From the NCBI GenBank assembly GCA_050012195.1, contig JBEKHQ010000001.1:1-28114 (forward strand): 28,114 nucleotides of DNA. Reading direction: 5' to 3'. Positions 466 through 28,114 of this stretch are shown here, one piece after another; within the stretch, counting starts at the first letter, position 1, and every line of letters begins with the position of its first letter. A program made the position numbers and the translations under genes. The notes below the pieces were generated by a model. The model was not told the origin of the DNA, did not search any database, and saw only the letters and a list, made by a program, of their open reading frames with translations. The DNA is from Bryobacteraceae bacterium. GTDB lineage: Bacteria; Acidobacteriota; Terriglobia; Bryobacterales; Bryobacteraceae.

Positions 466-469
466 GAGC

Positions 470-2196: not shown

Positions 2197-2230
2197 CGGA
2201 GGCCTTCCCGATCCGTTCGACGAATCTCGG

Positions 2231-4704: not shown

Positions 4705-4816
4705 GCCGCCATCGGTGGCGGATCCACCTGTTGGCCTGAGTCCCGGCTTGATACCCGCGGGCGCCATTCGCTTCTCTCCGTCAAACTCCCCGGTTGTTGC
4801 GGAAACCATTCGCAGC

Positions 4817-6061: not shown

Positions 6062-6069
6062 GAACGAGC

Positions 6070-7651: not shown

Positions 7652-9917
7652 AATCGTAATAATACTGACGCTTTCGGTCGCCGCGCAGGTCGTAGTCGGT
7701 TAGCACGGTGCCGAGCAATGCGAGACCATCCTCCTGGATGCGTTGGTACGCTTCCATGGCGTTGGCCCGGTTGGTGACGCCGCAACGGAGCACTAGAATC
7801 AGCGCGTCGGCGAGCGGAGCGATAATGCGGGTATCCGCGACGTGCAGAATCGGCGGCGTATCCACCAGAATCATGTCGTAGCGTTTCTTGAGGAACTCGA
7901 AGATCTCGCGCAGACGGGGCGAGTACAGGGCGCGGGCCACGTTGGACGTACCCGGTCCGGAGCCATTAGCCAGCAGCGATAACTCAGGAAAGCCGGTAGC
8001 CGCCGCAAGACGATCCATCGCATATTCGCTCAGGGGAGAGTCCTCCGACAGCATGTCGACCAAGCCCCAATCGTTCGGCAGGCCGAACTTGCGATGCAGG
8101 TGCGGCCGTCGAAAATCCGCGTCCACCACCAGCACTCGCCGGCCGGTTTCGGCGAGGGCGATGCCCAAATTTTGGATGACCGTCGTTTTCCCTTCCGCGG
8201 GCCCGGGACTGGTGACGAGAATGATCTTTTGGGCCTTCCCGCTGGCCTGATTACGTAAGATGGACGCCAGAGTGCCCCGAAACGATTCGGTGACGAAGGA
8301 AGGACCGCTCTGCCAGGTAACCATGGCCGACGCGGGATTCTCTCCGTCGCCGTTGAGCGCCATACCCTTGGAATGCAGGTACGAACGCCAGGTGGCGACT
8401 CCGTTGGCATCCGCTCCGAGATTCGGAATGACGCCGAGCTCGGGCGCATTAAACATCTGGCGCGACATACCCGGCGCCCGGATACTGGTATCCATCCGTT
8501 CGCGCAGAAATGCCAACCCGCCCGCGATCACGATCCCCAGCAACGACCCAAAGGAGATATTCAGAACCGGCCGCGGCTTAAACGGAAGTTCCGGAGGCGC
8601 GGCCGCTTCCACGATACGGATGGGACTGGCCGGCACCGAGCTGTTTAACCCCGCTTCGCTCTGTTGCATCAGAAGCGACTGATAAACCTGATGCAGCGTA
8701 TCTGCCTCGCGCCGCAGAGCGTTGTACTGCGCAGCCTTGGCTGCTTCCGATCCCACGCGCTGGGATTGGCTGCCGTAATTCTTCGACAGCAGCCTCTCCT
8801 GGCTCAGCGCGGCTTCGTAATCGTTCTTGATCCGGCTGACCACGCTGCGGATTTCGTTCTGGTAGTCTTTTCGTACCTCAGCCAACTGGGCGTCCAATTG
8901 GCGGACCTTCTCATGCTTGGGGGTGTACTTGACCTCGAGCGCGGCCTTTTCCTGCTCGAGCCCGTTGATCTTGGCCTGGTGGCCTCGCAACGCGGCGTCG
9001 TCCAGAACCTCGCCCAGCGTCTCGGGAGGATTCTTGAGCGTAAGTTCATAGCGCGTCTGTTTGGCGATGCGGTCGGATTGAATTTTCGCCAGCTCGCCTT
9101 TCAATTGCGTCAGCTTGGTGTCGTCGAGCGTGGTGTCCTGGCCCGCGAACACATTGCCGGAAGCCTGCACGAAATCCCGCTGATGCTCCTCGGCTTCCTG
9201 CATCTTCGATTTGGTTTCCTCGATGGACGCCGCCAGCCACTCGCTGGTCCTTTGCGAGGATTGCATGCGCGACCGGGAATTGTCCTCCTGAAACTCGGAA
9301 GCCATCGAATTCAGAAACTGCGCGGCCACGTCCGGGCTGCTCGACTCGCAGCTCAGCTCGATCAAGCGGGTATGAATCACCGGCCTCGCGTCAAACGTCC
9401 CCATGGCCAGGCCAATGCCTTGACGGGCATTCTCGAGCGGATCTTGCGTAGCGGGGTGAATGCGCTGCCTCAACCGCGAAAAGAGGTCGCGTCCGGTGGG
9501 GGCCAGCGGCACGCTGTCTTGCTGCAAACGTTCTGCGCCGCGCTTGAGGAACGTCCCGCTGCGCAGTATGCTGACTTGAGTCTGGATGTCCACCTCCGTA
9601 CCTTCGGCGCTCTCCAAGCCGTTCTTGGTGTACGTGCCGCCGCCGTTACCCACTTCGAGCAACAAGCGCGTTTTATAGCGCGGAGAACTCAACACCACCG
9701 ACGCGAAGCCTCCCGCGGCCCCAACCAGCAACAATACCAACAGCAAGAACCAATGCCGGCGGATAATGCCCTTGATATCCGCCGATGGGGCGGTCTCCTC
9801 GGCGCTTGCCGCGGGAGACTGATAATACTGCCGCCCGTTCTCCACAATGACCGGTTTTTCGCCGTAGGGGATGAGATGATTGCGATCGTCCCCGGAACCA
9901 TTTGGAAGCAGATCCAT
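7629..9917 (-). CDS. wzc: Polysaccharide co-polymerase / BY-kinase (Wzc-like tyrosine autokinase)
   Basis: Two TM segments flank a coiled-coil periplasmic domain. Walker A 'SPGPAEGKTT', A' 'VVDADFRRP', Walker B 'ILVDTPP', and C-terminal Tyr cluster 'QYYYDY'. Start ATG 9917 follows GGAGG. Confidence 0.92.
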   Translation of the reverse strand: MDLLPNGSGDDRNHLIPYGEKPVIVENGRQYYQSPAASAEETAPSADIKGIIRRHWFLLLVLLLVGAAGGFASVVLSSPRYKTRLLLEVGNGGGTYTKNGLESAEGTEVDIQTQVSILRSGTFLKRGAERLQQDSVPLAPTGRDLFSRLRQRIHPATQDPLENARQGIGLAMGTFDARPVIHTRLIELSCESSSPDVAAQFLNSMASEFQEDNSRSRMQSSQRTSEWLAASIEETKSKMQEAEEHQRDFVQASGNVFAGQDTTLDDTKLTQLKGELAKIQSDRIAKQTRYELTLKNPPETLGEVLDDAALRGHQAKINGLEQEKAALEVKYTPKHEKVRQLDAQLAEVRKDYQNEIRSVVSRIKNDYEAALSQERLLSKNYGSQSQRVGSEAAKAAQYNALRREADTLHQVYQSLLMQQSEAGLNSSVPASPIRIVEAAAPPELPFKPRPVLNISFGSLLGIVIAGGLAFLRERMDTSIRAPGMSRQMFNAPELGVIPNLGADANGVATWRSYLHSKGMALNGDGENPASAMVTWQSGPSFVTESFRGTLASILRNQASGKAQKIILVTSPGPAEGKTTVIQNLGIALAETGRRVLVVDADFRRPHLHRKFGLPNDWGLVDMLSEDSPLSEYAMDRLAAATGFPELSLLANGSGPGTSNVARALYSPRLREIFEFLKKRYDMILVDTPPILHVADTRIIAPLADALILVLRCGVTNRANAMEAYQRIQEDGLALLGTVLTDYDLRGDRKRQYYYDYGDSSRT

Positions 9918-9922
9918 GATGT

Positions 9923-10270
9923 TTACTCGCCTCCCCGACCATTGCTCTCGGCTGAATTGGCGCCCGACGAGCACTGGGCGGTGCTCTCGGCGAAATCATC
10001 CAGACCCGCGAACGGAACCTTGCTGGGGTTCAGAATCTGCAACTGCTCGGTCACTTCCGCGATCAGCCTTTCCAGCCGGTGCATCTTGTCCGCCAATTCC
10101 TCGTCCTCGCGTTGCCGGTTACCGTCGGCGATCAGCCGCTGTACCGCGCTCCGAGCCAGATCCGATACGCTGCGGGCCCCTGCCTGTTCGCAAACGCTCA
10201 CAAATTGGCGAAATTCGTCCTCCGATACTCGGAAGTACACTAACCGCTCTCTCGGCTTTAATACTGCCAC
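9923..10270 (-). CDS. Small ribbon-helix-helix (CopG/MobC-like) putative DNA-binding protein with coiled-coil tail
   Basis: 'RLVYFRVSEDEFRQFVSVCEQAGARSVSDLARSAV' fits the RHH strand-helix-helix pattern. GTG start with GGAGG upstream; stop 5 nt before wzc. Confidence 0.7.
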   Translation of the reverse strand: MAVLKPRERLVYFRVSEDEFRQFVSVCEQAGARSVSDLARSAVQRLIADGNRQREDEELADKMHRLERLIAEVTEQLQILNPSKVPFAGLDDFAESTAQCSSGANSAESNGRGGE

Positions 10271-15954: not shown

Positions 15955-18114
15955 ATGAGCGACCAAATCCAACTCACCATCGACGGCATGCCGGTATCGG
16001 TTCCGGCCGGGACCACGGTATTCGACGCCGCGCGCATGCACGGCATCGCGATCCCCACGCTGTGCCATCAACAGAACGAGACGCCGGTGGGAGTGTGCCG
16101 GGTGTGCGTGGTGGACGTGGAGAAGGCGCGCGTGCTGCAGGCCTCCTGCGTGCGTCCGGCGGAAAACAACATGGTGGTGTCCACCAACTCGGACCGGGTG
16201 CGGAGGGCGCGGCACACCTTGGTGGAGCTGCTGATGGCGGATCATCCCAGCCCATGCGCGCGGCAGCGGCAATCCAACGATTGCGAGCTGGAAACCATGG
16301 CGCGGCTGGAAGGCATCACCCAGCCTCGCTTCGCGCGCCGACTGTCGCCGCGCGGCCAGGACAACTCGTCGCTGGTGATCGCGGTGGATCACGAGGCCTG
16401 CATACTGTGCGACCGCTGCATCCGGGGCTGCGACGAGATTCGCCAGAACAACGTGCTGGGGCGGCGCGGCAAGGGCTTCGGAGCGGGCGTGGCGTTCGAC
16501 TACAACCTGCCCATGGGAAATTCCTCGTGCGTGTCGTGCGGGGAATGCATGGTGTCCTGCCCCACCGGCGCGCTCACCAACAAGAGCGTGATCAAGACCG
16601 TGCTGCCGGGCGACCCGGTGAAGGTCGAAGAGCTGCAGCAGCTGGCCTATTTCCAAAAAGTCTCGGGCACGTTTCTGGAGCTGAACAAGAACGCGGTGGT
16701 GCGGCGCCGCTTCCGCAAGGGCGAGATCGTGTGCCGGGAGGGCGAATACGGCTCCACCGCGTTCTACATTTTGGAAGGCCAGGCGCACGTGTATCTGGAC
16801 ACGCCGCTGGCGCACGTCAAGACCGGGGGCGGATCCACCGGGTTTTTCAGCAAGCTCACCAGCCGCCTGGTGGGACGCCAGCAGGAACGGCGCCCGGAGG
16901 AAGGCGCGCGCTTCAGCATTCCCATCGACGCCTCGGTCGACCTGCCCTACGACAATCCGGTGGCCACGCTGGGACCGGGCGACCTGTTCGGCGAAATGAC
17001 CTGCATGAGCCTGTATCCGCGCTCGGCCACGGTGCGCGCGGCCACCGATTGCGTGATGTTCGAGATGCTGCGCAACGTGCTGGACATCATCCAGCGCAAC
17101 AAGACGCTCAAGGCGCAGCTGGACGCCAACTATCGCAAGCGGGCGCTGGACGACCATCTGCGCAGCGTTCCGATGTTCGCCACCATGACGCAGGAGTTCA
17201 TCGACCTGCTGCGCGACAAGGTGGAGCTGGTGCGCTACACCAAGGGCGACATCGTCTGCCGGCAGGGCGACATCGCCGACAGCTTCTACCTGGTCCGGCT
17301 GGGCTTCGTGAAGGTATCGGAACCGCATCCGGGGGGCGAGCTGGTGCTGGCCTATCTGGGACGGGGCGGCTACTTCGGCGAAATCGGATTGCTGGGCGAG
17401 GGGCGCCGCACGGCCACCTGCACCGCGCTCGATCACGTGGAGCTGGTGCGCATCCACGCCGACGAGTTCCACCAGATGGTGGACCGGTTCCCGGAGATCC
17501 GGCACAGCCTGGAGCAGCTGGCCTACGAGCGGCAGCAGCAGAACCGGCAGCGGCTGGAAACCGCCACCAGCATGCCCTTGGACGCGTTCCTGACGCAGGG
17601 CCTGATGGAAGCGCAGAGCCTGTTGGTGCTGGATCTGGAGCGCTGCACGCGCTGCGACGCCTGCGTGCGGGCCTGCGCCGACGCGCACGACGGCGTGACG
17701 CGGCTGATCCGCGAGGGCCAGCGCTTCGATCATTATCTGGTGGCCACCTCCTGCCGGCATTGCCGCGATCCGTTGTGCATGGTGGGGTGTCCGGTGGGCT
17801 CCATCCGGCGCCGCAACTCGCTGGAAGTGATTATCGAGAACTGGTGCATCGGCTGCGGCATGTGCGCCAAGAACTGCCCCTACGGCAACATCACCCTGCA
17901 TCCGTTCAACGTCATGGAGGACGATCCGATGAATCCCGGGCACCGCAAGGCGGTGGTGAAGCAGAAGGCGGCTTCCTGCGATTTGTGCACCGAGCACGCC
18001 GAACCGACCTGCGTGTACGCCTGCCCGCACGACGCGGCGCATCGGGTGGAACCCAACGAATTTTTCCGCTGGCTGGGCACCCCTCTGGCCGCCACCGAGG
18101 CCCAGAAACACTAA
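15955..18114 (+). CDS. Multi-Fe-S protein: NuoG/FdhA-like N-terminal [2Fe-2S] + 2x[4Fe-4S], two cNMP-binding domains, C-terminal DmsB-like 4x[4Fe-4S]
   Basis: 'PTLCH...GVCRVC...ASC'; 'CILCDRCIRGC'; 'CVSCGECMVSCP'; cNMP cassettes 'FGEMTC..PRSATV' and 'FGEIGLL..RRTATC'; then 'CTRCDACVRAC', 'CRHCRDPLCMVGCP', 'CIGCGMCAKNCP' and 'CDLC...CVYACP'. Confidence 0.9.
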   Translation: MSDQIQLTIDGMPVSVPAGTTVFDAARMHGIAIPTLCHQQNETPVGVCRVCVVDVEKARVLQASCVRPAENNMVVSTNSDRVRRARHTLVELLMADHPSPCARQRQSNDCELETMARLEGITQPRFARRLSPRGQDNSSLVIAVDHEACILCDRCIRGCDEIRQNNVLGRRGKGFGAGVAFDYNLPMGNSSCVSCGECMVSCPTGALTNKSVIKTVLPGDPVKVEELQQLAYFQKVSGTFLELNKNAVVRRRFRKGEIVCREGEYGSTAFYILEGQAHVYLDTPLAHVKTGGGSTGFFSKLTSRLVGRQQERRPEEGARFSIPIDASVDLPYDNPVATLGPGDLFGEMTCMSLYPRSATVRAATDCVMFEMLRNVLDIIQRNKTLKAQLDANYRKRALDDHLRSVPMFATMTQEFIDLLRDKVELVRYTKGDIVCRQGDIADSFYLVRLGFVKVSEPHPGGELVLAYLGRGGYFGEIGLLGEGRRTATCTALDHVELVRIHADEFHQMVDRFPEIRHSLEQLAYERQQQNRQRLETATSMPLDAFLTQGLMEAQSLLVLDLERCTRCDACVRACADAHDGVTRLIREGQRFDHYLVATSCRHCRDPLCMVGCPVGSIRRRNSLEVIIENWCIGCGMCAKNCPYGNITLHPFNVMEDDPMNPGHRKAVVKQKAASCDLCTEHAEPTCVYACPHDAAHRVEPNEFFRWLGTPLAATEAQKH

Positions 18115-18119
18115 CGCCC

Positions 18120-18998
18120 ATGCGGATCGATCACACCCACCGTCCCTGGTTCGTCGTCACGCTGATCGCGGCCGCGGTTGCGACGGTCGTGTACATCTTA
18201 TATGCGGTCAACACGCCCACCGGCCCGCGCGGCGGCAGCGCGCTGGGTCTCACGTTCGGCATCCTGGGCTACGGCCTGATGCTGTACGCCGGATTGATCG
18301 GCGCGCGCAAGAAAGTGCCCACCTGGCGCATCGGACGCGGGCAAACCTGGATGCGCGGGCACATCTGGCTGGGCACGCTGAGCCTGCTGATCATTCTGTT
18401 TCACGCCGGCTTCGCGTTTCGAGGGCCGTTGACGACGGCTCTGATGATTCTGTTTTTCCTGGTGATCGCCAGCGGCATCGCGGGCGCGGCCCTGCAACAC
18501 TTCGTGCCCGGCGTCATGACCCAGCGCGTGCCCATGGAGACCATCTACGAGGAGATCCCGCACGTGCGCGTGCAACTGTGCGAGGAGGCCGACAAGCTGG
18601 TGGCCTCCATCTGCGGCCCCATGGACGCCGACGACACCGAGGAGCCCGCCGCGGCCGTCACCACGCTGGTGGAAATCGAACAAGGCGACAAAGCGCGCTT
18701 CCGCGAGATCTATCTGCAGCAGGTCCGCCCCTATCTGGCCGATCCGGAAGCGAGGCAAGCCGACCTGGCCGATCCGCTGCGCTCCACGCAGATTTTCGAA
18801 TCCATGCGCCGGCTGCTGGGCGGGCAGTTGCACGGCGTGCTGGACGATCTGGAAAACATCTGCGAGGAGGAACATCAGTTGAGCCGGCAGATTCGCATCT
18901 ATCGCTGGCTGCACGGCTGGCTGCTGATCCACGTTCCGTTGTCCATCGTATTGCTGGTGCTGGGAGGGGTGCACGCCGTCATGGCGCTGCGCTATTAA
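18120..18998 (+). CDS. Ferric-reductase-like transmembrane protein (putative diheme cytochrome b), 292 aa
   Basis: C-terminal part of the spurious 16062-18998 ORF; the real start is ATG 18120, 5 nt after the upstream stop. About 5 TM helices with two His pairs 14 residues apart: HIWLGTLSLLIILFH and HVPLSIVLLVLGGVH. Confidence 0.8.
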   Translation: MRIDHTHRPWFVVTLIAAAVATVVYILYAVNTPTGPRGGSALGLTFGILGYGLMLYAGLIGARKKVPTWRIGRGQTWMRGHIWLGTLSLLIILFHAGFAFRGPLTTALMILFFLVIASGIAGAALQHFVPGVMTQRVPMETIYEEIPHVRVQLCEEADKLVASICGPMDADDTEEPAAAVTTLVEIEQGDKARFREIYLQQVRPYLADPEARQADLADPLRSTQIFESMRRLLGGQLHGVLDDLENICEEEHQLSRQIRIYRWLHGWLLIHVPLSIVLLVLGGVHAVMALRY

Positions 18999-19002
18999 TC
19001 CC

Positions 19003-20316
19003 ATGGCCGGACGAACCCGCACCACCAAGAAACTGGCGCAGCGCATCAATCTGAATTACTTCAAGACCCTGCGCGGCATCCCGCGCTGGCGGCGCATCCT
19101 GTCCGGCGTTTTGGTCGCGCTCGGCGTCGCGTGGCTGGGCTGGTACGCGCTGGCGGGCACTCCCAAGCCCTATAACGCCGGACCGGTTTCGCACACCCAC
19201 ACCCTGATCGGAGGCAAGTGCGAAACCTGTCACGCGACCCAGGCCGGCTTCGAGCACAGCGCCACCGATAAAGCCTGCCTGACTTGTCACGACGGTCCCA
19301 TTCATCACGCCGAACAGACTTTCTCGCCGGCCTGCGCCAGCTGCCACGTCGAGCATAAGGGCGCGTTTCGGCTGGCCGCCACCACGGACGAAGCCTGCAC
19401 GCAATGCCACGCCGATCTGGCGGCCAAGGATAAGAACGCGCCGCCGCGTTTTGTTTCAAACATCCGCGGCTTCGACGGCACGCATCCCCAGTTCGCGGTG
19501 CTGCGCTCGGGCCGCATCGATCCGGGCACCATCAAGTTCGGCCACCAGGTGCATTTGAAGAAGGATTTACGAGGGCCGCACGGGCCGGTGCAACTGCAAT
19601 GCGCCGATTGTCATCGCCCGCAAGGCTTGAACCAACCCTGGCCGTTCAGTATCGCGCAGATCGCTCCGGTATCGTTGTCGGCCGCCCTGCCCGACCGATC
19701 CTACATGGAGCCGATCAACTACGAAAAGCATTGCGCCACCTGTCACACATTGCAGTTCGACCGGCGCTTCTCCGAAAGCGTGCCGCATAAGGAGCCCAAG
19801 GTGGTGTACGATTTCGTGGTCGAGAAACTGACCGGCTACATCGCGGAGCATCCCACCCAGATTCCGCTGGTGGACGAGCCGGACAAGCGGCTGCCCAGCC
19901 GTCCGCCGCAGCCGCCGGCGCGCAACGCTCGCGAATGGGTGGCCGAGCGGCTGACCGATTCCGAGTTCCTGTTGTGGCGCAAGGCCTGCAAGGAATGCCA
20001 TCTGGAAACCTTTCCGAACGGCAACGACGCGCTGCCGGTGGTAGCCAAGGCGGCCATCACGGCGCGCTGGCTGCCGCATTCCAACTTCGATCACGAAGCG
20101 CACCAGATGGTGGCCTGCGCTGCTTGTCACGCCAAGGCGCCCACCAGCAAGGAGACCTCCGACGTCCTGATCCCCGGCGTCCAGGTCTGCCGCGACTGCC
20201 ATCATGCCGGTAAGGAAGCCGCCGAAGCCCGCTGCTTCGAGTGTCACAACTATCACGACTGGACCAAGGAAAAACCCCCCGTCGGCAAGTTCGCCGTTTC
20301 CCAGCTCGGCCAATAA
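19003..20316 (+). CDS. Membrane-anchored decaheme cytochrome c
   Basis: Ten CXXCH motifs counted (CETCH, CLTCH, CASCH, CTQCH, CADCH, CATCH, CKECH, CAACH, CRDCH, CFECH). Basic N-terminus followed by one hydrophobic helix. Confidence 0.92.
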   Translation: MAGRTRTTKKLAQRINLNYFKTLRGIPRWRRILSGVLVALGVAWLGWYALAGTPKPYNAGPVSHTHTLIGGKCETCHATQAGFEHSATDKACLTCHDGPIHHAEQTFSPACASCHVEHKGAFRLAATTDEACTQCHADLAAKDKNAPPRFVSNIRGFDGTHPQFAVLRSGRIDPGTIKFGHQVHLKKDLRGPHGPVQLQCADCHRPQGLNQPWPFSIAQIAPVSLSAALPDRSYMEPINYEKHCATCHTLQFDRRFSESVPHKEPKVVYDFVVEKLTGYIAEHPTQIPLVDEPDKRLPSRPPQPPARNAREWVAERLTDSEFLLWRKACKECHLETFPNGNDALPVVAKAAITARWLPHSNFDHEAHQMVACAACHAKAPTSKETSDVLIPGVQVCRDCHHAGKEAAEARCFECHNYHDWTKEKPPVGKFAVSQLGQ

Positions 20317-20349
20317 GCGGCTCGTGGTGGAGTAAACTGCAAGGTACGC

Positions 20350-23300
20350 TTGCCCCCAGAAACATCCGTTCCGCAAACGATGAATGAGTTATTGGCGCTG
20401 CTCCGTTCGGTCCCTTTCCTGGCTCCATTGACGGATTCCGAACTCGAGCATATCGCTCAACAATCCAGCAGGGAGACCGCGGCGCCCGGCCGCGTAATTG
20501 TGCGCGAGGGCGAAATCGGCGAATGCATGTACGTGATCGTGCGCGGCGCGGTACAGATCCTCACAACTTCTTTCGACGGATCGGACGTCGTGCTGGCGCG
20601 CCTGGAAGCCGGTCAATGGTTCGGCGAACAAGCGCTTCAGCCGGGCGGAACGGGCCGGCGCAACGCCAGCGTCCGGGCGATCGAGGAGTGCAGCCTGGTG
20701 GTGCTGTCGCGCGACCTTCTGCGGGATGTGCTCGCGCAGGACTCCCAGTTGCTGGTCGAGTTGCGCAAGAGAGGAGCAGAGCAGCGAGCGCTGCGCAACA
20801 ACCGCCTTCGGGAGGGAGTGTTTGCGACCCTGGGCTTGGAGTCAGGCTCCCTCGAATATCGCGTAGAGAAATATCCCGCGGGCGAGGCGGTCTTTCATCA
20901 GGGAGACCGCGGAGACCGGCTGTATCTGATCCTGAGCGGGCGCGCGCATGTGGAGCGAACCGAGGGCGGCGAGCGCAGGATTTTGGCCGAGCTGCTGCCC
21001 GGGCAATTTTTCGGCGAGCTCGCAATATTGCGCGACACGCCGCGCAACGCGACCGTGGCGGCAGCCGACGAGCTCGAAGTGGTGAGCCTGGACGGGGAAT
21101 GGTTCCGGCGCGCGCACGATCAAAATCCGGCGCTGCGGTCGTTGATGGAGTCGCTCGAGAGCATGTACCTGCTCCCGCATCGCGGCCTGCTCACGCTGCA
21201 GACGGGACAGTTGGACGGCAAGCCGGCGCTGACGGCGGTGCACAATCTTCCGGACGGCAGGCGCGTCATGAGCACGCGGCTTACCGGCGCGCCCGCGTTC
21301 ACCGCGCAAGTGCTGGACGCGGAGAAATCCGGCGCCGCGTCCGTGATCTACGAGAAGCCGGAGCACGGAATCTACCGCGAGCTGCAGGTCGGCGGCGGCA
21401 AACTGACGGGCCTGGAATCGCAGGGCGAGTGGACCGGCTTGGGCGACATGTTCGGCCGGTTGCTCGACGGCGCGCCGGTGGAGGAATGGCAACTCGCGCT
21501 GTTCCGCGAGCGCGGCGATTTCCGGGTACAGGAAGTTCAGCCGCTCTATGAAGAGAAAGAGATCATCTGCACCTGCACTCACACCAGTTGCGGCAAGATC
21601 ATGCAGGCCATTCGCGACAACTGCACCACCGTGGAACAGGTGGCCAAGCGCACCAACGCGACGCGGGTCTGCGGCGGCTGCATGCCCTTGGTGCGCGAAC
21701 TGCTGGGACAGTCGGATTGGACGGCGGCGCACGTGATCGAGCGCGTCCCGCTGGCGGAGGACGTGCGATCTTTTCGCATCCGCCCGATCGCGGGCGAGTG
21801 CCGGGATTGGCTGCCGGGACAGCACCTGGTGCTCCAGGCGCGCATCGATAATCGTTGGGTGCAGCGCGCCTACACTCTCTCGTGCGCTCCCGGCGGGAGC
21901 TGGTACGAGATCACCGTGAAACGCGAGCCGCAAGGCGTGTTCTCGCGCTGGTTGTTCGATCGCATGCCGCAAGATGCAATGCTGCGCGTGTCGGAACCGG
22001 GTGGCGAGTACCATCTGCCCGCCGATCAGACCGCGGACGTCGTGTGCCTGGTGGGCGGTATCGGCGTAACTCCGGCGCTCGCGATGGCGCGGACTTTGAG
22101 CGCGCGGCCCAGGCCCTTCCGGCTGCATGTGCATTATTGCGCCTCCCAGCCGGACGACCTGGTGGGCCGCGACGAACTGGCGGCGCTGTCACAAAAGAGC
22201 GAACGCATTTCGGTCGAATTCCGCGCCACGCGACTGGAAGGCCGCTTCGGGCTGGAGCAGGTTCGCGAAGTCGCTAATCGTTTTCCGGGCGCGCTCTATT
22301 TCCTGTGCGGAAGCCCGCCCTATATGGATGCCGTGGGCGGGTATCTGCGGGAATGCGGAGTGCCGGAGGAGCGCATTCGCGTCGAGGTTTTTATCGCCGC
22401 GGGCGCCAAGGTGGCTGAGCAGGCGGCCCCCAAACATTGCCCGGTGGATCACGCGGCGCGCGCTTTGGAAACTCCTGCCGCGCCGCTCGAACAGGCGCGC
22501 GCGATGCTGGGCGATTGTTATCGCGAGGCCAACGCTCCGCCGTCGGTTTTCGAGGCGCGCTGGCGCAAGGTAGAGGACGAATTTCAGCTCGACCAGACCT
22601 ATAGCCAGACCTTCGAAGAGCTGGTGTACGCGTCGCGCGTCGCCTGGAGGAACAGCGTCAAATGCATCGGCCGATTGTTCTGGCAAGGGTTGGCGGTCCG
22701 CGATTTCCGCCATGTTCAAACCGAGGACGAGATGTTCGAGGCGATTTTCTCGCACATCGAAACGGCCATGAACGGCGGGAATCTGCGGCCGCTGATCACG
22801 GTCTTCCCGCCCGCGGACAAGGACGGCCACAAGCCGCGCATCTGGAATCCGCAGATTTTTCGCTACGCGGGCTACCGGATGCCGGAGGGCCCTGTACTGG
22901 GCGATCCCGCGAATGTCGAGCTCACCGAAGCCGCGATCCGTTTGGGCTGGACGCCTCCCGCCGCGCGCGGCCGTTTCGACCTGCTGCCGGTGATCCTGGA
23001 AGCGGGAGGCCGTAAGCCGCAGTGGCGCGAGATTCCCAAGCACTTGGTGGTCGAAGTGCCGATTCTGCATCCGCGCTTCGAAGGCTTCCAAAATCTGGGA
23101 TTGAAGTGGTACGCGCTGCGGCTGGTGGCGGGCATGCTGCTCGACGCCGGCGGAGTGCAATACTCGGCCGCGCCCTTTAACGGCTGGAGCATGGGCACGG
23201 AAATCGGCGCCCGGATCTTCAGCGACGTCAATCGCTACAACCAGTTGCCCGAGGTCGCAAAAATCCTGGGACTTGATACCGAAAGCGATCGAACCTTGTG

Positions 23301-23568
23301 GCGCGACCGGGCGCTGGTGGAGCTCAACGTCGCTGTTCTGCACTCCTTCGACAAAGCAGGGATCAAGATCATGGATCACCACGCGGCGAGCGAAGCCTTC
23401 ATGAAGTTCGACGATCAGGAGAGCCGCGCCGGCCGACCCGTACACGCGCGCTGGAGCTGGATCGTGCCGCCGATTTCAGGCTCCGCGACACCCGTATTTC
23501 ATCAGGAATGGACGGATGTCGAGATCAAACCGAACTATGTTGCCCTGCCCGAGCCGTGGAAGGCTTGA
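20350..23568 (+). CDS. nos: Nitric oxide synthase fusion: 2x cNMP-binding, BFD-like [2Fe-2S], FAD/NAD(P)H reductase (FNR-like), NOS oxygenase
   Basis: cNMP cassettes 'FGEQAL..RRNASV' and 'FGELAIL..PRNATV'. BFD 'ICTC...VCGGC'. Reductase 'RAYTLS', 'GVFSRWL', 'GGIGVTP' and 'LCGSPPYM'. NOSoxy 'AWRNSVKCIGR' (heme Cys), 'RIWNPQIFRYAGY', 'PFNGWSMGTEIG', 'IMDHH' and 'WSWIVPPISGSATPVFHQ'. Start is TTG 20350 or ATG 20380. Confidence 0.92.
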   Translation: MPPETSVPQTMNELLALLRSVPFLAPLTDSELEHIAQQSSRETAAPGRVIVREGEIGECMYVIVRGAVQILTTSFDGSDVVLARLEAGQWFGEQALQPGGTGRRNASVRAIEECSLVVLSRDLLRDVLAQDSQLLVELRKRGAEQRALRNNRLREGVFATLGLESGSLEYRVEKYPAGEAVFHQGDRGDRLYLILSGRAHVERTEGGERRILAELLPGQFFGELAILRDTPRNATVAAADELEVVSLDGEWFRRAHDQNPALRSLMESLESMYLLPHRGLLTLQTGQLDGKPALTAVHNLPDGRRVMSTRLTGAPAFTAQVLDAEKSGAASVIYEKPEHGIYRELQVGGGKLTGLESQGEWTGLGDMFGRLLDGAPVEEWQLALFRERGDFRVQEVQPLYEEKEIICTCTHTSCGKIMQAIRDNCTTVEQVAKRTNATRVCGGCMPLVRELLGQSDWTAAHVIERVPLAEDVRSFRIRPIAGECRDWLPGQHLVLQARIDNRWVQRAYTLSCAPGGSWYEITVKREPQGVFSRWLFDRMPQDAMLRVSEPGGEYHLPADQTADVVCLVGGIGVTPALAMARTLSARPRPFRLHVHYCASQPDDLVGRDELAALSQKSERISVEFRATRLEGRFGLEQVREVANRFPGALYFLCGSPPYMDAVGGYLRECGVPEERIRVEVFIAAGAKVAEQAAPKHCPVDHAARALETPAAPLEQARAMLGDCYREANAPPSVFEARWRKVEDEFQLDQTYSQTFEELVYASRVAWRNSVKCIGRLFWQGLAVRDFRHVQTEDEMFEAIFSHIETAMNGGNLRPLITVFPPADKDGHKPRIWNPQIFRYAGYRMPEGPVLGDPANVELTEAAIRLGWTPPAARGRFDLLPVILEAGGRKPQWREIPKHLVVEVPILHPRFEGFQNLGLKWYALRLVAGMLLDAGGVQYSAAPFNGWSMGTEIGARIFSDVNRYNQLPEVAKILGLDTESDRTLWRDRALVELNVAVLHSFDKAGIKIMDHHAASEAFMKFDDQESRAGRPVHARWSWIVPPISGSATPVFHQEWTDVEIKPNYVALPEPWKA

Positions 23569-23647
23569 ATGACACTCTTCCTGTAACGTTCACATTGCAT
23601 GCACTTTGTCAACTGTTAGCCCATTACTTACTGTACCTAAAGACACC

Positions 23648-23675
23648 TTGAATCTCGTCCAAAGTGACCTATAAT
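23648..23675 (+). promoter_or_regulatory. Putative sigma70 promoter upstream of the large surface-protein gene
   Basis: TTGAAT (23648-23653), 16-nt spacer, TATAAT (23670-23675) in an AT-rich intergenic region. Confidence 0.55.
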
Positions 23676-23930
23676 GAAATACCCTGCTGAAGAACTTGCA
23701 GAACCTTGGTACCATCGGGAGGTTACCTGCGCACCCACAAGTGGACGCGGGAGGAAGTCGTAAATCATTGAATTTGCTTTGGCTGAACCCATCCACACGC
23801 TGCGGCGTTTCGAAGTTTCCGCGCCCAATCAATAGGCCCTTGGCGGCAGTACGCCTACATTTAATTTGGGTAGGTGCTCCAGTGACGCCCCTAACCCAAT
23901 GGTTTAACTTTGGGGAAGGGAAATTTAGAG

Positions 23931-26900
23931 ATGCTTAAGCCTTTACATGGCTTATTGTTAGCGGGTTTGCTGGCTGCGCCGGTGCTGTTTGGCCAGGATC
24001 CTCTATGCACCGGCAGCCAAAGCTCGAGTGGCGAAACTTTCGAAAGCAACGGGGGCGCCGGTACGTTTTCCGGAACCGTTACCACTTACTGCGGCCCCCT
24101 GACGTCGGCCACACCCAGCGCGCCCTGGATCAGCATCACCTCGGCGACCGGGACCTTCTCCATCCAGTTCTCGGTTTCTCCGAATACAACGGGATCGAGC
24201 CGTTCGGGCAGTATTACGGCGAAGTTCACAAACCCCGGGATCGAATCTTTCACCTTCTCGGTGACGCAGTATGCAAAGCTGACCTTTACTAGTTCTTCAC
24301 TACCCGTCGGCGCCGTCGGATATCCTTATTCCGCTCAGTTGCAGGTCTCGGGAGGAAGCGATGACTCGCGAAGCTTCTCCATCATTTCAGGCTCGCTTCC
24401 GCCCGGTTTATCCTTATCGGGTTCAACGATCGGCGGAACGCCGACCGGATCGGGAACGACGGCTTCTTTTACCGCGCAAGTCACCGATATCGACCCCAGC
24501 TCCGGCAATCCGTTTTCCGCAACTCAGGGCTTCGAAATAACGATCAATCCCCGATTTACAGCCTCCACAACGTCGCTGCCAGGCGCAACCGTTGGAGTAA
24601 GTTACTCGGCGTCAGTCTCGGCCAGCGGAGGATTTGCGCCGTATGGCTGGTCCCTGATTTCAGGAGCATTGCCCTCGGGATTATCGCTGAATTCCGGTAC
24701 CGGAGCGATCAGTGGAATTCCCGGCGCCAACTCTCAAGGGTCGTATCCGATCACAATCCAGGTGTCCGATCTGCGCGGCGAGACTTTGAACGTACCGCTC
24801 ACGCTGAATGTCGCTGGAACTCCGATTCCCTTAACGATTACGACCTCTACCTTGCCGTCGGCGACTGCGGGAGTGCCTTATAGCGCGTCGCTCACGGCCA
24901 ACGGCGGGACGACGCCCTATGCCTGGTCGGCAGCGGGTCTTCCATCCTGGTTGAGCGTTTCGCCTGCCGGCCAGGTCTCCGGCACACCGCCGGCGGGATC
25001 GGCGGGAAGCTTTCCCTTCACCGCAAAAGTGCTGGACGCCATCGGCCATTCCGCCTCCGCCCCCCTGTCGTTGCAGGTGAACCTTCCTCCCCCTGGTCCT
25101 TTGAGCATTGTCACTACTTCGCCGCTCCCTGATGGAAGAGAAGGCAGCGTCTACAATTTCGGCTTCGTTGCAACCGGCGGAAAAGCCCCATACGAGTGGT
25201 CGGCCACCGGCCTTCCGGCATTCTTGAACCTGGCGCCGAGCGGCAGTCTCACCGGGATACCGTCGGTGGGTTCCGCGGGTCCCTACAGCTTTACTGCGAC
25301 GGTTAGCGACGCCTTGGGAAACAAAGTCAGCGGAACATTCGGCCTGAAAGTGGACTCTTTGACGTCGCTAGGGATCACGACATCCTTGTTGCCGCCCGCC
25401 ACGGTAGGTGTGCCCTATAGCGTTGCGTTCGCGGCCACCGGCGGGACCTTGCCCTATGCGTGGTCGGCTTCCGGCTTACCGTCATGGTTGAGCCTTTCCC
25501 AAGCCGGCCAGCTCTCCGGCACGCCCCCGGCGGGAGCCCCGGTCTCGCTTAGCTTCACGGTGAGCGTCGGCGACTCTGCGGGAAATAAGGCGAGCGGGAT
25601 GTTCAGCCTGACGGTGAACCCGCTGAAATCCACCGTGCTGGTGACCATCATCGTTGCGTCGCCCCTGCCGCAAGCCACCGAAAATCAGCCTTACACAGTT
25701 ACATTCAGCGCCAGCGGCGGCACCGCTCCGTACACTTGGACGGGAGTGGGAGTGCCCTATTGGGCGAATCTCTCGCCGGCGGGCGTGCTCAGTGGAACTC
25801 CGCCGTTCGGCTCCGCGGGCGCCACGCTACTCACGGTCACCGCCACCGATTCGGCGAACAACAGCCAAAGCACGCAAGTCACGCTGGTGGTATTGTCGGC
25901 GAACGGCCCCACCATTACGACGACGTCTCCTCTGCCGAACGCGGCCGCCGGCGCCAATTATCAAATTACGTTGAGCGCCACGGGAGGAACACCGCCCTAC
26001 CAATGGTCGGGTTCGGGCATTCCAGCCGGACTCACGTTGACATCGAATGGACAACTGAGCGGCACTCCCACTACTCAGGGCGTCAATACCGTGACCGCGC
26101 AAGCCACCGACGCGGACCATAACGTGGCGTTCGCGGCGCTGAACTTACAGGTTGCGCCTTCCGCGATCACGATCATCACGCCTACCCCGCTGCCCGCCGG
26201 CGAGGTGAGTGTTTCATATTCGACCGTGTTTCAATCCAGCGGCGGAACTCGGCCACAGTCGTGGAGCCTTGTTTCCGGAACAATACCGCCCGGCACGACT
26301 CTCGATTCGAGCGGAGTTCTGAGCGGCACTCCAACACAGACCGGAGTCTTCGACTTCACCGTAAACGTCTCCGACGAGGGCGTGGCCGACGTCGAGAAGA
26401 CCAAGGCCGTAAAGGCGAACGTCGCCGGTGTTGCCGGCGCCAGCGCCCCGTTCGAAATCACGGTAACGCCTTACGTAACGCCGGATCTAATTCTTTCTTG
26501 CGGCAGCCTGTCGTTCGCGGCGCCCAGCCAAGGGACTGCGTCCCTGCAAACGTGTTCCGTCATCTCGACCGTTTACAACTCGATCCCATTCTCGGTGAGC
26601 GCGAATGTGCCATGGCTGTCGGTGTCGACCGGCGGAATCACGCCGGGCAATCTCGAAATAGGCGCGAATCCCGCCGGTCTCTCGGACGGGGCTCACGCCG
26701 GCACGATCACCGTGTCGTCCCCGGGCGTGACCTCCAAGACTATCCAAGTATCGTTCACCACCAACGCCGAGCTCGAGGCTTCCGGAATCCTGCAAGTTTC
26801 GCCCTCCACTCTGACGCTCTCCAGCCCTGGGTCTCCGGCACTCAACCAGACTCTCTTCCTTCAGAATCTAGGGCAAGGCAATCTGCCTTTCACGGTTTCG

Positions 26901-28114
26901 ACCGACGTTCCCTGGCTGGTAGTAAGCCCACAGTCTGGAACGCTCAGCGGGGAGGGGGCCCTCACGCTACAGGCTACGATTTTGACGCCGAGCCTCGCGC
27001 CGGGCGCATACCTGGGACACATCGAGATCGATTCGCCCTACGGCAGCTTCCAGATCCCGGCCAGCCTGCTGATTTCAGGACAAACGTCAAATTTGGGATC
27101 GCGGCCGAGAATGATACTGAGCCGGGACGGCATCCTGCTGCGTGCACGGCAGGGGAATGGGGTGTCCGGACCGGTCCCGACAACCTTCGAGATTACAGGC
27201 TCCACTAGCACCACGATCAACTATACGGTCAGCCAGGTAGGCGGAGAAGGCTGGCTGACGCTGGTAAGCGACCCGCAAGGCACCGCCTCGAGCACGGTTA
27301 CGGGAACGGTGGCTTTCAAGGCTACGAGCGCTCAATTGCCGAAGGGCGCGTATTATGCGATCTTGCGCGTCACTGCGGCCGAGCCCTTCGACTCGCCTTT
27401 GGATTTCCTGGTGGTCCTGGATGTAGAAGACGCCTCCACGCCGGCCACGCCGGATTCCTACCCCAGCGGCTTGCTATTTGCGGCTGCGGCCGGAACCAAT
27501 CCGCCCACTCAGATGGTGGCCGTCTACACCAGCAACGACAAGCCCATATCGTACCAAGTGGCGATCGAGACGGAGAGCGGCGGAAATTGGCTTTCGGCCA
27601 CGCCGCTGGCCGGCTTCCTCGCTACCCTAACGCCGGCGCAGCTTACCGTGTCGGTGAATACTTCCAATTTGACGCCCGGAATCTACCGGGGCGGGGTCAA
27701 TGTCTCGATCAGCAACCTGGAAGTGCGCACGGTGAACGTCACCCTGATCGTTCCGGACTTGGGTTCTTCCTCGAGCTCGTCGTCGCATGCGGTCTCGAAC
27801 CCGGCTTCGAGCGCCTCCGCCACTCCGGCGGCTGCGTCAACCTGTACGCCCGCCAATCTGGTGTTAACGGAAACAGGTTTGCCCGGCAGTTTCTCGACTC
27901 CCGCCGCGTGGCCCAGTTACATCGCCGTCCAGCTTGCAGACGATTGCGGCAATCCGGTCTTCGGCGGCTACGTGGTAGCCAATTTCTCGAACGGCGATCC
28001 ATCGCTCTCGCTGGCTGCGAACACTGCGACCACGGCGCTGTATTCCGCCACCTGGACACCAGTAAACCCCGTGGCGCAACTCACGATCACGATGCAAGCC
28101 AGCGCTTCGGGACT
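23931..28114 (+). CDS. Large secreted surface protein with BACON-like and eight putative-Ig (He_PIG-like) domains; truncated by window end (>1390 aa)
   Basis: Not in the ORF track because there is no stop codon in the window. Manual translation: signal peptide MLKPLHGLLLAGLLAAPVLFGQ; one BACON-like unit (PWISIT...SRSGSIT); eight 'T.LP.A..G.PYS....A.GG..PY.WS...LP..L.L...G.LSGTP' repeats; four 'WL.VS'-type BACON-like units; then 'CTPANLV...PAAWPSYIAVQLADDCGNPV...ANFSNGDP'. Confidence 0.9.
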   Translation, partial: MLKPLHGLLLAGLLAAPVLFGQDPLCTGSQSSSGETFESNGGAGTFSGTVTTYCGPLTSATPSAPWISITSATGTFSIQFSVSPNTTGSSRSGSITAKFTNPGIESFTFSVTQYAKLTFTSSSLPVGAVGYPYSAQLQVSGGSDDSRSFSIISGSLPPGLSLSGSTIGGTPTGSGTTASFTAQVTDIDPSSGNPFSATQGFEITINPRFTASTTSLPGATVGVSYSASVSASGGFAPYGWSLISGALPSGLSLNSGTGAISGIPGANSQGSYPITIQVSDLRGETLNVPLTLNVAGTPIPLTITTSTLPSATAGVPYSASLTANGGTTPYAWSAAGLPSWLSVSPAGQVSGTPPAGSAGSFPFTAKVLDAIGHSASAPLSLQVNLPPPGPLSIVTTSPLPDGREGSVYNFGFVATGGKAPYEWSATGLPAFLNLAPSGSLTGIPSVGSAGPYSFTATVSDALGNKVSGTFGLKVDSLTSLGITTSLLPPATVGVPYSVAFAATGGTLPYAWSASGLPSWLSLSQAGQLSGTPPAGAPVSLSFTVSVGDSAGNKASGMFSLTVNPLKSTVLVTIIVASPLPQATENQPYTVTFSASGGTAPYTWTGVGVPYWANLSPAGVLSGTPPFGSAGATLLTVTATDSANNSQSTQVTLVVLSANGPTITTTSPLPNAAAGANYQITLSATGGTPPYQWSGSGIPAGLTLTSNGQLSGTPTTQGVNTVTAQATDADHNVAFAALNLQVAPSAITIITPTPLPAGEVSVSYSTVFQSSGGTRPQSWSLVSGTIPPGTTLDSSGVLSGTPTQTGVFDFTVNVSDEGVADVEKTKAVKANVAGVAGASAPFEITVTPYVTPDLILSCGSLSFAAPSQGTASLQTCSVISTVYNSIPFSVSANVPWLSVSTGGITPGNLEIGANPAGLSDGAHAGTITVSSPGVTSKTIQVSFTTNAELEASGILQVSPSTLTLSSPGSPALNQTLFLQNLGQGNLPFTVSTDVPWLVVSPQSGTLSGEGALTLQATILTPSLAPGAYLGHIEIDSPYGSFQIPASLLISGQTSNLGSRPRMILSRDGILLRARQGNGVSGPVPTTFEITGSTSTTINYTVSQVGGEGWLTLVSDPQGTASSTVTGTVAFKATSAQLPKGAYYAILRVTAAEPFDSPLDFLVVLDVEDASTPATPDSYPSGLLFAAAAGTNPPTQMVAVYTSNDKPISYQVAIETESGGNWLSATPLAGFLATLTPAQLTVSVNTSNLTPGIYRGGVNVSISNLEVRTVNVTLIVPDLGSSSSSSSHAVSNPASSASATPAAASTCTPANLVLTETGLPGSFSTPAAWPSYIAVQLADDCGNPVFGGYVVANFSNGDPSLSLAANTATTALYSATWTPVNPVAQLTITMQASASG

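Follow-up and report, generated by a model that had tools for sequence, protein, structure and literature searches.

The window analysed here, a 28,114-nucleotide stretch of DNA from a Bryobacteraceae bacterium, carries a long open frame in which two cyclic nucleotide-binding (CNB) domains stand ahead of a reductase and a NO synthase (NOS) oxygenase domain. It raises the question of whether a cyclic nucleotide (cNMP) commands the supply of electrons to this enzyme, and hence NO synthesis.

Gene structure and assembly integrity

The gene was delimited as follows:

20350-23568, + strand: uninterrupted open frame of 1072 codons, counted from TTG at 20350
20380-23568, + strand: whole gene from the ATG start, 1062 codons plus stop

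The 1072-amino acid ORF of the original prediction holds as an open frame. The ATG at 20380 is, however, most likely the start in preference to TTG 20350, since P0002, a homologue at 98% identity, counts 1062 amino acids and the ESM Atlas entry begins at residue 11; the product would therefore be 1062 amino acids long. Homologues range from 1054 to 1070 amino acids. All residue numbers below refer to the 1072-residue frame counted from TTG 20350. The domains run, from the N- to the C-terminus, CNB-A, CNB-B, link, BFD [2Fe-2S], FNR-like FAD/NAD(P)H reductase, tether and NOS oxygenase (NOSoxy). Pfam matches were obtained for every domain named in the original prediction, in the order given there and within a few codons of its coordinates. 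The full-length AF2 model has a pLDDT of 85.8 and a pTM of 0.62, the latter giving only moderate confidence in the inter-domain arrangement.

The gene comes from a MAG that is 75% complete and broken into 803 contigs, and in run X1 one contig diverges from the window sequence at 20324, just past the upstream gene; both points could be read as signs of an assembly artefact or of a pseudogene in decay. Against this, the frame is open over all 1072 codons, and contigs from three independent peat metagenome runs tile the gene at 99% identity or more, crossing every domain boundary with no joints or indels. An independent assembly (L024), distinguished by SNPs, carries the same gene with both flanks, bridging the upstream junction and including the same downstream gene. 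The architecture also recurs in about 100 clusters, some on large contigs (about 2 Mb or more for G035:C3) and one on a 12.3-Mb contig of Polyangium aurulentum. Together these observations rule out, for practical purposes, both an artefact and a pseudogene; the chimeric assembly that the original prediction had warned of gives way to an intact gene supported by the three peat runs and L024. The gene was present in none of the RNA runs searched, and a search for a conserved operon partner found none.

The cyclic nucleotide-binding pair

20425-20781, + strand: CNB-A, residues ~26-144 (Pfam PF00027; CRP match 26-144)
20620-20679, + strand: CNB-A phosphate-binding cassette (PBC), FGEQALQPGGTGRRNASVRA, keeping G92, E93, R104 and S107
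20827-21159, + strand: CNB-B, residues ~160-270 (PF00027, best stretch 173-258)
21010-21063, + strand: CNB-B PBC, FGELAILRDTPRNATVAA, of canonical length, keeping G222, E223, R232 and T235

Pfam recognises cNMP_binding (PF00027) twice, with 153.6 bits in total against a cut-off of 27.5 (total 1.4e-45), and the AF2 pLDDT of CNB-A lies mostly between 84 and 95. In the PDB, residues 13-275 are matched best by the tandem CNB domains from PKG and PKA-R, while CNB-B matches the CNB domains of PKA RI-alpha, PKG and MloK1. As in PKA-R and PKG, CNB-A and CNB-B stand in tandem with a connecting helix; here, however, the fusion partner of the pair is a redox enzyme in place of a kinase or kinase-inhibitor segment, and the PBC of CNB-A is two residues longer than in those modules.

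The phosphate-binding Glu and Arg that the original prediction had placed in both domains are E93/R104 and E223/R232, and each PBC carries an Arg-x-Ala-[Ser/Thr] motif (R104/A106/S107 and R232/A234/T235). Among 99 full-architecture homologues, the PBC of CNB-A retains Gly in 99, Glu in 97, Arg in 93 and Ser/Thr in 83; for CNB-B the figures are Gly 99/99, Glu 93, Arg 86 (with His in another 11) and Thr 94 (with Ser in five). The Glu-to-Arg distance in CNB-A is 11 as against the canonical 9, a longer loop that most homologues keep, and that of CNB-B (FGELAIL...PRNATV) is canonical. These residues are thus retained in both domains across NOS fusions that share 30-98% identity, and likewise in free-standing and C-terminally extended forms (described below), making 218 cassettes overall. 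Mean identity is 44-47% for the CNB domains against 50% for the reductase, so that conservation is much the same in both. The non-canonical PBC of CNB-A and the replacement of the CNB-B Arg by His in about 11% of homologues were weighed against cNMP gating.

Because the residue after the PBC Arg, Asn in this protein, varies among Ala, Thr, Ser and Asn across the family, cAMP and cGMP cannot be told apart from the sequence. CRP/FNR-type folds can bind ligands other than cNMP, and this diversity, together with the variable residue and the extended PBC of CNB-A, would fit an enzyme gated by something other than cAMP or cGMP, such as another cyclic (di)nucleotide, a metabolite or haem. We regard such a ligand as decidedly improbable: the PBC of CNB-B is a textbook one, the best solved matches (PKG, PKA-R and MloK1) are true cAMP/cGMP binders, and the 75%-complete genome encodes at least four class III nucleotidyl cyclases, so that a source of the cNMP signal exists.

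Link domain, electron-transfer domains and tether

21160-21549, + strand: folded link domain, residues 271-400, eight strands and two helices
21562-21708, + strand: BFD-like [2Fe-2S] domain, residues 405-453 (Fer2_BFD, PF04324, 5.6e-11)
21730-22395, + strand: FNR-like FAD/NAD(P)H reductase, residues 461-682 (PF00970 and PF00175)
22396-22461, + strand: flexible tether between reductase and oxygenase, residues 683-704 (22 residues)

The segment behind CNB-B had been described as a linker; it is instead a confidently folded domain (AF2 with 140 sequences: pLDDT 92.5, pTM 0.84), which is common to the EF-hand-type NOS discussed below. Over its last ~90 residues it is similar to the interface domain found in GR-family ferredoxin reductases and in NirB: VIA-align comparison with the C-terminal domains of BphA4, TodA, PuR and PdR gave Z values of 5-7.7 and an rmsd of ~2.8 A over ~82 residues, and an NCBIfam NirB match aligns residues 327-454 with NirB 336-467 (E 5e-14). 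Foldseek matches to the link domain are weak (E 0.02 or worse).

The BFD domain has kept all four Cys ligands (C407, C409, C441 and C444) in every NOS fusion (99/99) and every cassette (218/218). This small domain adjoins a disordered stretch and has a pLDDT of 63-78, below that of its neighbours. The reductase contains FAD_binding_6 (461-554, 2.1e-07) and NAD_binding_1 (568-662, 8.1e-05) domains, with a flavin motif at R506-x-Y508-T509, followed by G570-x-G572-x-x-P575 and C653-G654; among solved structures it comes closest to the reductase domain of flavohaemoglobin (1gvh, E 3.6e-18). The tether is the sole long segment with a pLDDT below 50 (model residues 673-694), and the least conserved part of the protein (31% mean identity).

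The oxygenase domain and its altered pocket

22486-23562, + strand: NOS oxygenase domain, residues 713-1071 (NO_synthase, PF02898)
23119-23217, + strand: clade-specific pocket changes R924, L925, S947 and I956

The NO_synthase match is practically complete (496 bits against a cut-off of 22.7, 6.1e-149, profile positions 6-362 of 362). The domain is of bacterial length, without the Zn/N-terminal hook; the match ends at residue 1071 of 1072, leaving no place for the C-terminal flavodoxin and FAD_binding_1 reductase of mammalian NOS and syNOS, and PF00258 and PF00667 give no matches in the protein. In the PDB it matches murine iNOS oxygenase (2.3e-115) and Bacillus subtilis NOS (~1e-112), and the AF2 model superimposes on the latter with a TM of 0.95 and an rmsd of 1.4 A over 359 residues. 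The haem Cys, originally placed at 22663, is C772 (22663-22665) within AWRNSVKCIGR, and is conserved in 98/99 homologues; the stacking Trp, W766, is present in all 99, and the guanidinium Glu E951 with W946, the pterin residue R955, and W1035/W1037 are each conserved in at least 97/99. Q837 and R962, which align with iNOS Gln257 and Arg382, are also kept. Alignment shows NOSoxy to carry all the residues predicted to bind haem, pterin and guanidinium.

The residues R924, L925, S947 and I956 stand in for the Pro, Ala, Tyr and Asn/Asp of other NOS, the aligned murine iNOS reading P-A-Y-D at what we take to be P344, A345, Y367 and D376. In the solved iNOS and nNOS structures Tyr367 and Asp376/Asn (iNOS numbering) hold the amino-acid end of L-Arg; both are absent here, replaced by S947 and I956. 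R-[LVI]-S-I is found in all 15 clusters that are at least 63% identical to the window protein and in 0/84 of the remaining full-architecture homologues, 80 of which read P-A-Y-N; overall, 83/99 homologues have Tyr at the position of S947 and 81/99 have Asn at that of I956. Since the changes persist down to 63% identity, they are selected and not errors. Judged from the aligned residues, this Bryobacteraceae-like clade has a remodelled pocket where the amino-acid end of the substrate lies, while the guanidino chemistry is probably kept. NO formation from L-Arg is consequently less certain for this gene, and L-Arg may not be the substrate in the clade.

In its strong form this would mean that the oxygenase of the clade no longer uses free L-arginine, its pocket fitting another guanidino substrate or its product balance being different, so that "NO synthase" would be no more than an approximate name for the window's gene. 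The co-occurrence of four replacements (Pro to Arg, Ala to Leu/Val/Ile, Tyr to Ser and Asn to Ile) in all 15 clade clusters and nowhere else among the 99 homologues, two of them at the positions that hold the amino-acid end of L-Arg in solved NOS, speaks for it. Retention of the haem, stacking, guanidinium and pterin residues, and of Q837 and R962, speaks against it, and the new Arg924 could substitute for the lost Tyr as carboxylate partner. On balance we think both the altered substrate and the approximate name unlikely, though worth serious consideration. The loss of the Tyr and Asn/Asp that hold L-Arg by its carboxylate/amine end was also weighed against the explanation that we prefer below.

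A portable cassette and its EF-hand counterpart

The CNB-reductase part of the protein also occurs free-standing, in conserved gene order upstream of a P450 gene, and fused to P450s, a fatty-acid desaturase or a ~170-amino acid tail. These proteins are ~50% identical to window residues 12-690 and share the PBC residues and Cys ligands, but lack the NOS domain; IMG names them "ferredoxin-NADP reductase/CRP-like cAMP-binding protein". On the cassette tree NOS-fused, free-standing and otherwise fused forms are interleaved, and the NOS group of the window has as its sister the closest of the free-standing clades. By these sequence relationships the CNB pair is not NOS-specific; it is part of a portable reductase cassette that would also serve P450s and a desaturase.

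The original prediction had likened the protein to scNOS of Sorangium cellulosum. The core and its reductase-first order (link, BFD [2Fe-2S], FNR-like FAD/NAD(P)H, NOSoxy) are indeed the same, but scNOS is not sensor-less: EF-hands lie at the same N-terminal place, within the first ~330 residues (PMC7400543 Fig. 2; PMC7016017), where the window protein has the CNB pair instead. Pfam lists EF-hands ahead of this core in Sorangium and cyanobacterial NOS and finds none in the window protein. Sorangium P0155 shares 45% identity with window residues 270-1072, the alignment starting at about 270, as it does with the cyanobacterial proteins, and the two N-termini are unrelated (hhalign probability 0.2%). 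On the NOSoxy tree that the original prediction had called for, the EF-hand type forms one clade (24 rows) nested among cNMP-type lineages, and the window protein lies outside it. For scNOS (Agapie et al. 2009, PNAS, as cited in PMC4436077 and PMC3701330), the 2Fe-2S/FAD reductase is reported to be the electron donor, with NO formation in the presence of H4B or H4F. SiliNOS of Silicibacter sp. TrichCH4B is described as having the scNOS architecture; its oxygenase domain, the part studied, makes NO from N-hydroxyarginine (PMC4436077).

That scNOS-class enzymes function as fused reductase-oxygenases (PMC4436077), that some NOS of the same clades, such as the Planctomycetota forms P0046, P0158 and P0173, come without an N-terminal sensor, and that the PBC of CNB-A is atypical could all be accommodated if the CNB-like domains were structural only, a dimerisation or docking scaffold without ligand switching, in an enzyme that makes NO constitutively when expressed. 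We consider this quite unlikely, since residues relevant solely to ribose-phosphate binding are kept in both domains throughout the 218 cassettes and another second-messenger module, the EF-hand, sits at the same place; moreover, several "sensor-less" entries are contig-end fragments, P0156 and the cNMP-type P0166, for instance, sharing an identical NOS part.

Distribution

The complete architecture is present in ~100 sequence clusters (30-98% identity), including the cultured Polyangium spumosum, P. fumosum and P. aurulentum, and UniRef names one Polyangium protein as a cyclic nucleotide-binding domain protein. It is therefore widespread in uncultured bacteria and cultured Polyangium, database-listed and not rare. 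The original prediction knew of no characterised NOS with a cNMP sensor, and our literature search found no paper on one; the architecture is thus undescribed in the papers searched. The host is a peat-bog Acidobacteriota with a Bryobacteraceae-like genome. Within its genus the gene is patchy (2/36 other species) and it occurs in 0/24 genomes from the other families of the order, in keeping with the earlier view that NOS is atypical for Acidobacteriota.

Proposed mechanism

Domain matches and model together show a single chain predicted to comprise a CNB pair, an interface-like domain, a four-Cys BFD domain, an FNR-like reductase, a disordered tether and NOSoxy. Electrons would pass from NAD(P)H through FAD and [2Fe-2S] to haem, with the small BFD domain probably acting as a mobile shuttle; the disordered 22-residue tether and the lower confidence of the BFD domain in the AF2 model are the evidence for mobile parts. 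The CNB pair would bind cAMP or cGMP, and binding, relayed through the interface-like domain, would release or reposition the shuttle, so that the nucleotide level would govern how fast electrons are delivered and, through this, how fast NO is made. The CNB-reductase unit would be a portable, sensor-equipped electron-donor cassette that evolution joined to NOS, P450s and a desaturase, the unrelated EF-hand module occupying the place of the CNB pair in the scNOS lineage.

By analogy, the best mechanistic precedent for such gating would be syNOS of Synechococcus PCC 7335 (PMC6104048, PMC12922734), a multidomain bacterial NOS in which an N-terminal sensor gates inter-domain electron transfer: its Ca-sensing C2 domain blocks the contact between reductase and oxygenase and shifts away on Ca binding (PMC12922734). 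It differs in that a diflavin reductase of mammalian type follows the oxygenase and that globin modules and a C2 sensor are present, and it lacks the Fe-S cluster and CNB domain that the window protein has. Mammalian NOS, with a homologous oxygenase domain, likewise places reductase-to-haem electron flow under a second messenger (Ca2+/calmodulin), but uses a separate calmodulin, a C-terminal diflavin reductase and the Zn/N-terminal hook.

Taken as a whole, a cNMP-gated, reductase-fused NOS with a portable sensor cassette is the best explanation, and one that we hold to be reasonably probable. Gating of the electron supply by cNMP is a well-supported inference, and the design of the protein suggests that bacterial NO production may be switched by cAMP or cGMP. 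A bolder combination, in which the CNB-reductase unit is a general valve on the electron supply of oxygenases, cNMP releasing the mobile [2Fe-2S] shuttle, and the oxygenase of the clade takes a guanidino substrate other than free L-arginine, seems to us a long shot. Were it true, the protein would be a cNMP-triggered generator of NO (or a related N-oxide), with cNMP upstream of NO and the animal order reversed.

Significance

The inputs that stimulate scNOS-class bacterial NOS are unknown according to the authors of PMC4436077. If the CNB domains are inert, the finding is one further member of a database-listed family. The cNMP-sensor NOS family nevertheless offers a direct, testable handle: a classical second-messenger sensor fused to the electron supply of the enzyme itself, with Polyangium orthologues in culture and a sister lineage that bears a calcium sensor at the corresponding position. 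The pocket changes peculiar to the clade raise a second question, that of the substrate. If gating is true, this would be the first case of a bacterial pathway with NO synthesis under the command of a cyclic nucleotide; the portable, ligand-switchable reductase, extending to P450s and desaturases, would be of interest for biocatalysis, and the swapping of sensors on a constant redox core would be the way in which these enzymes were rewired.

Gene integrity and domain organization

The NOS gene is a single open frame on the plus strand (20350–23568), 1072 codons counted from TTG. Translation more probably begins at ATG 20380 than at TTG 20350, since P0002, a homolog with 98% identity, has 1062 residues, the other homologs have 1054–1070, and the ESM Atlas record begins at residue 11. 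Residue numbers here follow the 1072-residue frame. The domain coordinates of the original prediction were borne out by Pfam, and the haem Cys lies at 22663, where it had been placed.

Domains of the NOS protein
Residues ~26–144 and 173–258: cNMP_binding, two copies (Pfam, total E 1.4e-45; the extent ~26–144 of the first copy is from a separate CRP match, not Pfam)
Residues 405–453: Fer2_BFD (Pfam, E 5.6e-11)
Residues 461–554: FAD_binding_6 (Pfam, E 2.1e-07)
Residues 568–662: NAD_binding_1 (Pfam, E 8.1e-05)
Residues 713–1071: NO_synthase (Pfam, E 6.1e-149)

Metagenome runs, tiling contigs and an independent assembly (L024) show that the gene is not a chimera. Across 19 studies, 20 metagenome runs from peat or bog contain a near-identical gene; in three of them contigs tile 18900–24300 at 99% identity or more, free of joints and indels, and every domain boundary is crossed by individual contigs. 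L024, which differs by SNPs, runs from the end of the upstream gene across the 63-bp spacer into the start of NOS, and carries the same downstream gene as the window. Read depth over the gene is apparently below that of its flanks, to which no meaning is given because the figures are per contig. The gene was absent from the RNA runs searched.

Residues 271–400, originally described as a linker, are a folded domain: folded alone with 140 homologs they give eight strands and two helices (pLDDT 92.5). Foldseek found no match for this link domain in the PDB at E ≤0.001. Over its last ~90 residues it can be superposed on the interface domain that ends ferredoxin reductases of the GR family, among them BphA4, TodA and putidaredoxin reductase; the VIA-align Z values of 5–7.7 are middling and are counted only because they agree with the NCBIfam match of residues 327–454 to NirB 336–467. 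We tentatively regard link and BFD domains as a NirB-type unit. The BFD domain holds its four cysteines (C407, C409, C441 and C444), and the FNR-like part, nearest to the flavohaemoglobin reductase domain 1gvh (E 3.6e-18), retains its flavin and dinucleotide motifs. The oxygenase superposes, as a model, on B. subtilis NOS (TM 0.95, rmsd 1.4 Å) and retains the thiolate Cys, stacking Trp, guanidinium Glu, pterin Arg and Trp pair.

The full-length AlphaFold model (pLDDT 85.8, pTM 0.62) has one long disordered stretch, the 22-residue tether from reductase to oxygenase, and among the folded parts its confidence is lowest in the BFD domain. Both features fit a small Fe-S domain and an oxygenase that may move relative to the flavin domain.

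The sensor pair

The best solved matches of residues 13–275 are the tandem CNB modules of PKG and of PKA regulatory subunits. The phosphate-binding cassette (PBC) of CNB-B, FGELAILRDTPRNATV, has the textbook form, while CNB-A keeps Gly-Glu and Arg-x-Ala-Ser in a loop two residues longer than the canonical one. The Glu and Arg that the original prediction had found intact in both domains are also conserved across homologs. The cyclic-phosphate contacts of CNB-A are G92 (99 of 99), E93 (97 of 99) and R104 (93 of 99), and those of CNB-B are G222 (99 of 99), E223 (93 of 99), R232 (86 of 99, with His in 11) and T235 (94 of 99). They are likewise kept in free-standing and C-terminally extended CNB-CNB-link-BFD-FNR cassettes, 218 cassettes in all, and the CNB domains come close to the reductase in degree of conservation.

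Comparison with scNOS

The characterized scNOS type, found in Sorangium and several cyanobacteria, was compared by means of later papers and the Sorangium sequences. The order of the core, previously likened to that of scNOS, is indeed the same from the link domain on (45% identity over residues 270–1072 of the window protein); the likeness does not extend to the N-terminus, where the scNOS type carries EF-hands (PMC7400543 Fig. 2, PMC7016017) in contrast to the CNB pair of the window protein. That the EF-hand N-termini are decayed CNB domains was ruled out by hhalign, which gave a profile-profile probability of 0.2%. The core being the same and the N-termini unrelated, two unrelated second-messenger modules therefore occupy one position of one redox core. 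A NOSoxy tree with 122 rows places the EF-hand type, together with its truncated or unassigned relatives, in a single starred clade (24 rows) among several cNMP-type lineages. The tree was built by a quick method and is unrooted, so that the direction of the sensor change is unproven.

Substrate pocket

In the clade of the window protein (identity ≥63%) all 15 clusters have Arg924, Leu/Val/Ile925, Ser947 and Ile956. Pro-Ala-Tyr-Asn stands at these positions in 80 of the 84 other homologs, none of which has the clade pattern, and aligned murine iNOS has Pro-Ala-Tyr-Asp. In NOS enzymes of solved structure the Tyr and Asn/Asp bind L-Arg at its carboxylate/amine end. Being co-inherited and old, the changes are selected. 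Judged from these alignments, either the new Arg would take over carboxylate binding or the substrate of this clade would differ; a different substrate seems rather unlikely.

Gene neighbourhood

Neighbouring genes in the window
1–10000, minus strand: exopolysaccharide/exosortase cluster
15955–18114, plus strand: Fe-S protein with its own CNB domains, 719 aa (first of the trio directly upstream of NOS)
18120–18998, plus strand: membrane protein, 292 aa (second of the trio)
19003–20316, plus strand: multihaem cytochrome c, 437 aa (third of the trio)
23910–28112, running off the end, plus strand: surface protein, >1400 aa, with He_PIG Ig-like repeats and BACON domains

The trio is tightly packed, the membrane protein and cytochrome genes following the Fe-S/cNMP gene at intervals of 5–6 bp. 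A promoter and terminator scan gave nothing usable near the NOS gene. Because the spacer is 63 bp and holds no terminator-like site, this arrangement would allow co-transcription of trio and NOS. No conserved operon partner was found, as the neighbours differ among eight homolog loci (L006–L012 and L024), the 98%-identical strain excepted; nor is the trio counted as part of a NOS unit, its adjacency not being conserved across these loci. In the genome of one relative (G035) it lies 2.2 kb from NOS with another gene between, and in a second (G015) it occurs three times, always on contigs other than that of NOS. Homologs of 85–87% identity adjoin a glycosidase gene and have no trio there, and at five more distant loci the neighbours are all mutually different. 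The NOS gene is a self-contained, mobile unit.

The 719-aa protein, encoded two genes before NOS, is a second redox protein with cNMP sensors. It begins with a 2Fe-2S (Fer2_4) and NuoG-type 4Fe-4S module, carries two to three central cNMP-binding domains and ends in 4Fe-4S dicluster domains. Copies with 82–84% identity occur in both relatives: G035 has an intact one and another interrupted by TGA stops, and G015 has three as well as a partial one. At the locus of another homolog (P0027) a similar cNMP/Fer4 protein and a cytochrome lie 7 kb from NOS.

A 2371-base contig from a peat metagenome run (X1) matches 18900–20324 and then continues for about 350 bases that occur nowhere in the window; the divergence point, 20324, is 8 bp past the cytochrome stop codon. 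This suggests a strain or relative with something other than NOS after the cytochrome gene.

In the 98%-identical strain, too, NOS is followed by the surface-protein gene, which there encodes 1641 aa and precedes a PEP-CTERM protein. The exopolysaccharide/exosortase cluster, with a Wzz-type tyrosine kinase, exosortase EpsH, DUF3485 (EpsI-like), two GT4 glycosyltransferases, an O-antigen ligase-like protein and a flippase-like protein, has no apparent tie to the NOS gene.

Distribution and the portable cassette

Word-indexed and exhaustive representative searches yielded 330 relatives, 101 of which have the full CNB-CNB-link-BFD-FNR-NOS order by our own domain mapping. The cultured holders are all myxobacteria (Polyangium spumosum, P. 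fumosum and P. aurulentum); MAG holders belong to Methylomirabilota, Bradymonadia, Planctomycetia and Sericytochromatia. The architecture is widespread and already listed in public databases, since UniRef titles the P. spumosum protein a cyclic nucleotide-binding domain protein; a description was not found, the searchable literature covered giving nothing relevant on a NOS or a P450 reductase with a cNMP sensor. The host genome is Bryobacteraceae-like, of the phylum Acidobacteriota; an ABC transporter neighbouring NOS has homologs of 83–84% identity that bear this name. The view that NOS is not a typical Acidobacteriota gene agrees with its patchy occurrence: of 36 further species in the genus two have it, and it is missing from all 24 genomes that represent the order's other families.

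The cassette is not specific to NOS. Free-standing forms of ~680 aa account for 118 of the relatives and are about 50% identical to the first 690 residues of the window protein, and further cassettes are fused to P450s or a fatty-acid desaturase. In the cassette tree NOS-fused, free and otherwise-fused forms interleave, starred branches forcing at least eight changes. Two unrelated metagenome contigs (L022, 3791–9836; L023, 3734–9673) share the order GST, DUF924, free-standing cassette, P450 and FAD_binding_4 oxidase, which makes them a candidate for a P450 pathway under sensor control.

A large group of cassettes, comprising P0218 and about 25 further representatives, has a C-terminal extension of ~170 residues without a Pfam match; most of them fall in two starred clades of the cassette tree, with 8 and 13 rows.

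Proposed mechanism

The protein combines, on a single chain, a domain for NAD(P)H and FAD, a [2Fe-2S] domain, a haem-thiolate NOS domain and a flexible tether. Electrons would pass from NAD(P)H through FAD and [2Fe-2S] to the haem; of the enzyme's identity and this path we are highly confident. The CNB pair would bind a cyclic nucleotide (cAMP or cGMP), and the change on binding would reach the BFD shuttle, or the sites at which it docks, by way of the helix that follows CNB-B and the interface-like domain. Electron supply would thus be set by the level of the nucleotide, as activation or inhibition. Gating by a classical cyclic nucleotide is narrowly favoured, and the mechanism as a whole is reasonably probable. 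As to the source of the signal, the 75%-complete genome encodes at least four class III nucleotidyl cyclases; no H-NOX, an NO sensor, was found in it.

Equivalent switching is achieved in mammalian NOS via calmodulin. The closest precedent for CNB gating is Synechococcus PCC 7335 syNOS, in which an N-terminal Ca-binding C2 domain covers the reductase-oxygenase docking site and is moved 85 Å off by Ca binding (PMC12922734).

The observation behind the original prediction is confirmed and its interpretation partly supported, cNMP gating being a well-motivated proposal from the sequence. The family is real, widespread and listed in databases, though as far as we found not described in the literature searched, and the window protein belongs to the scNOS class but carries another sensor, one that is unstudied.
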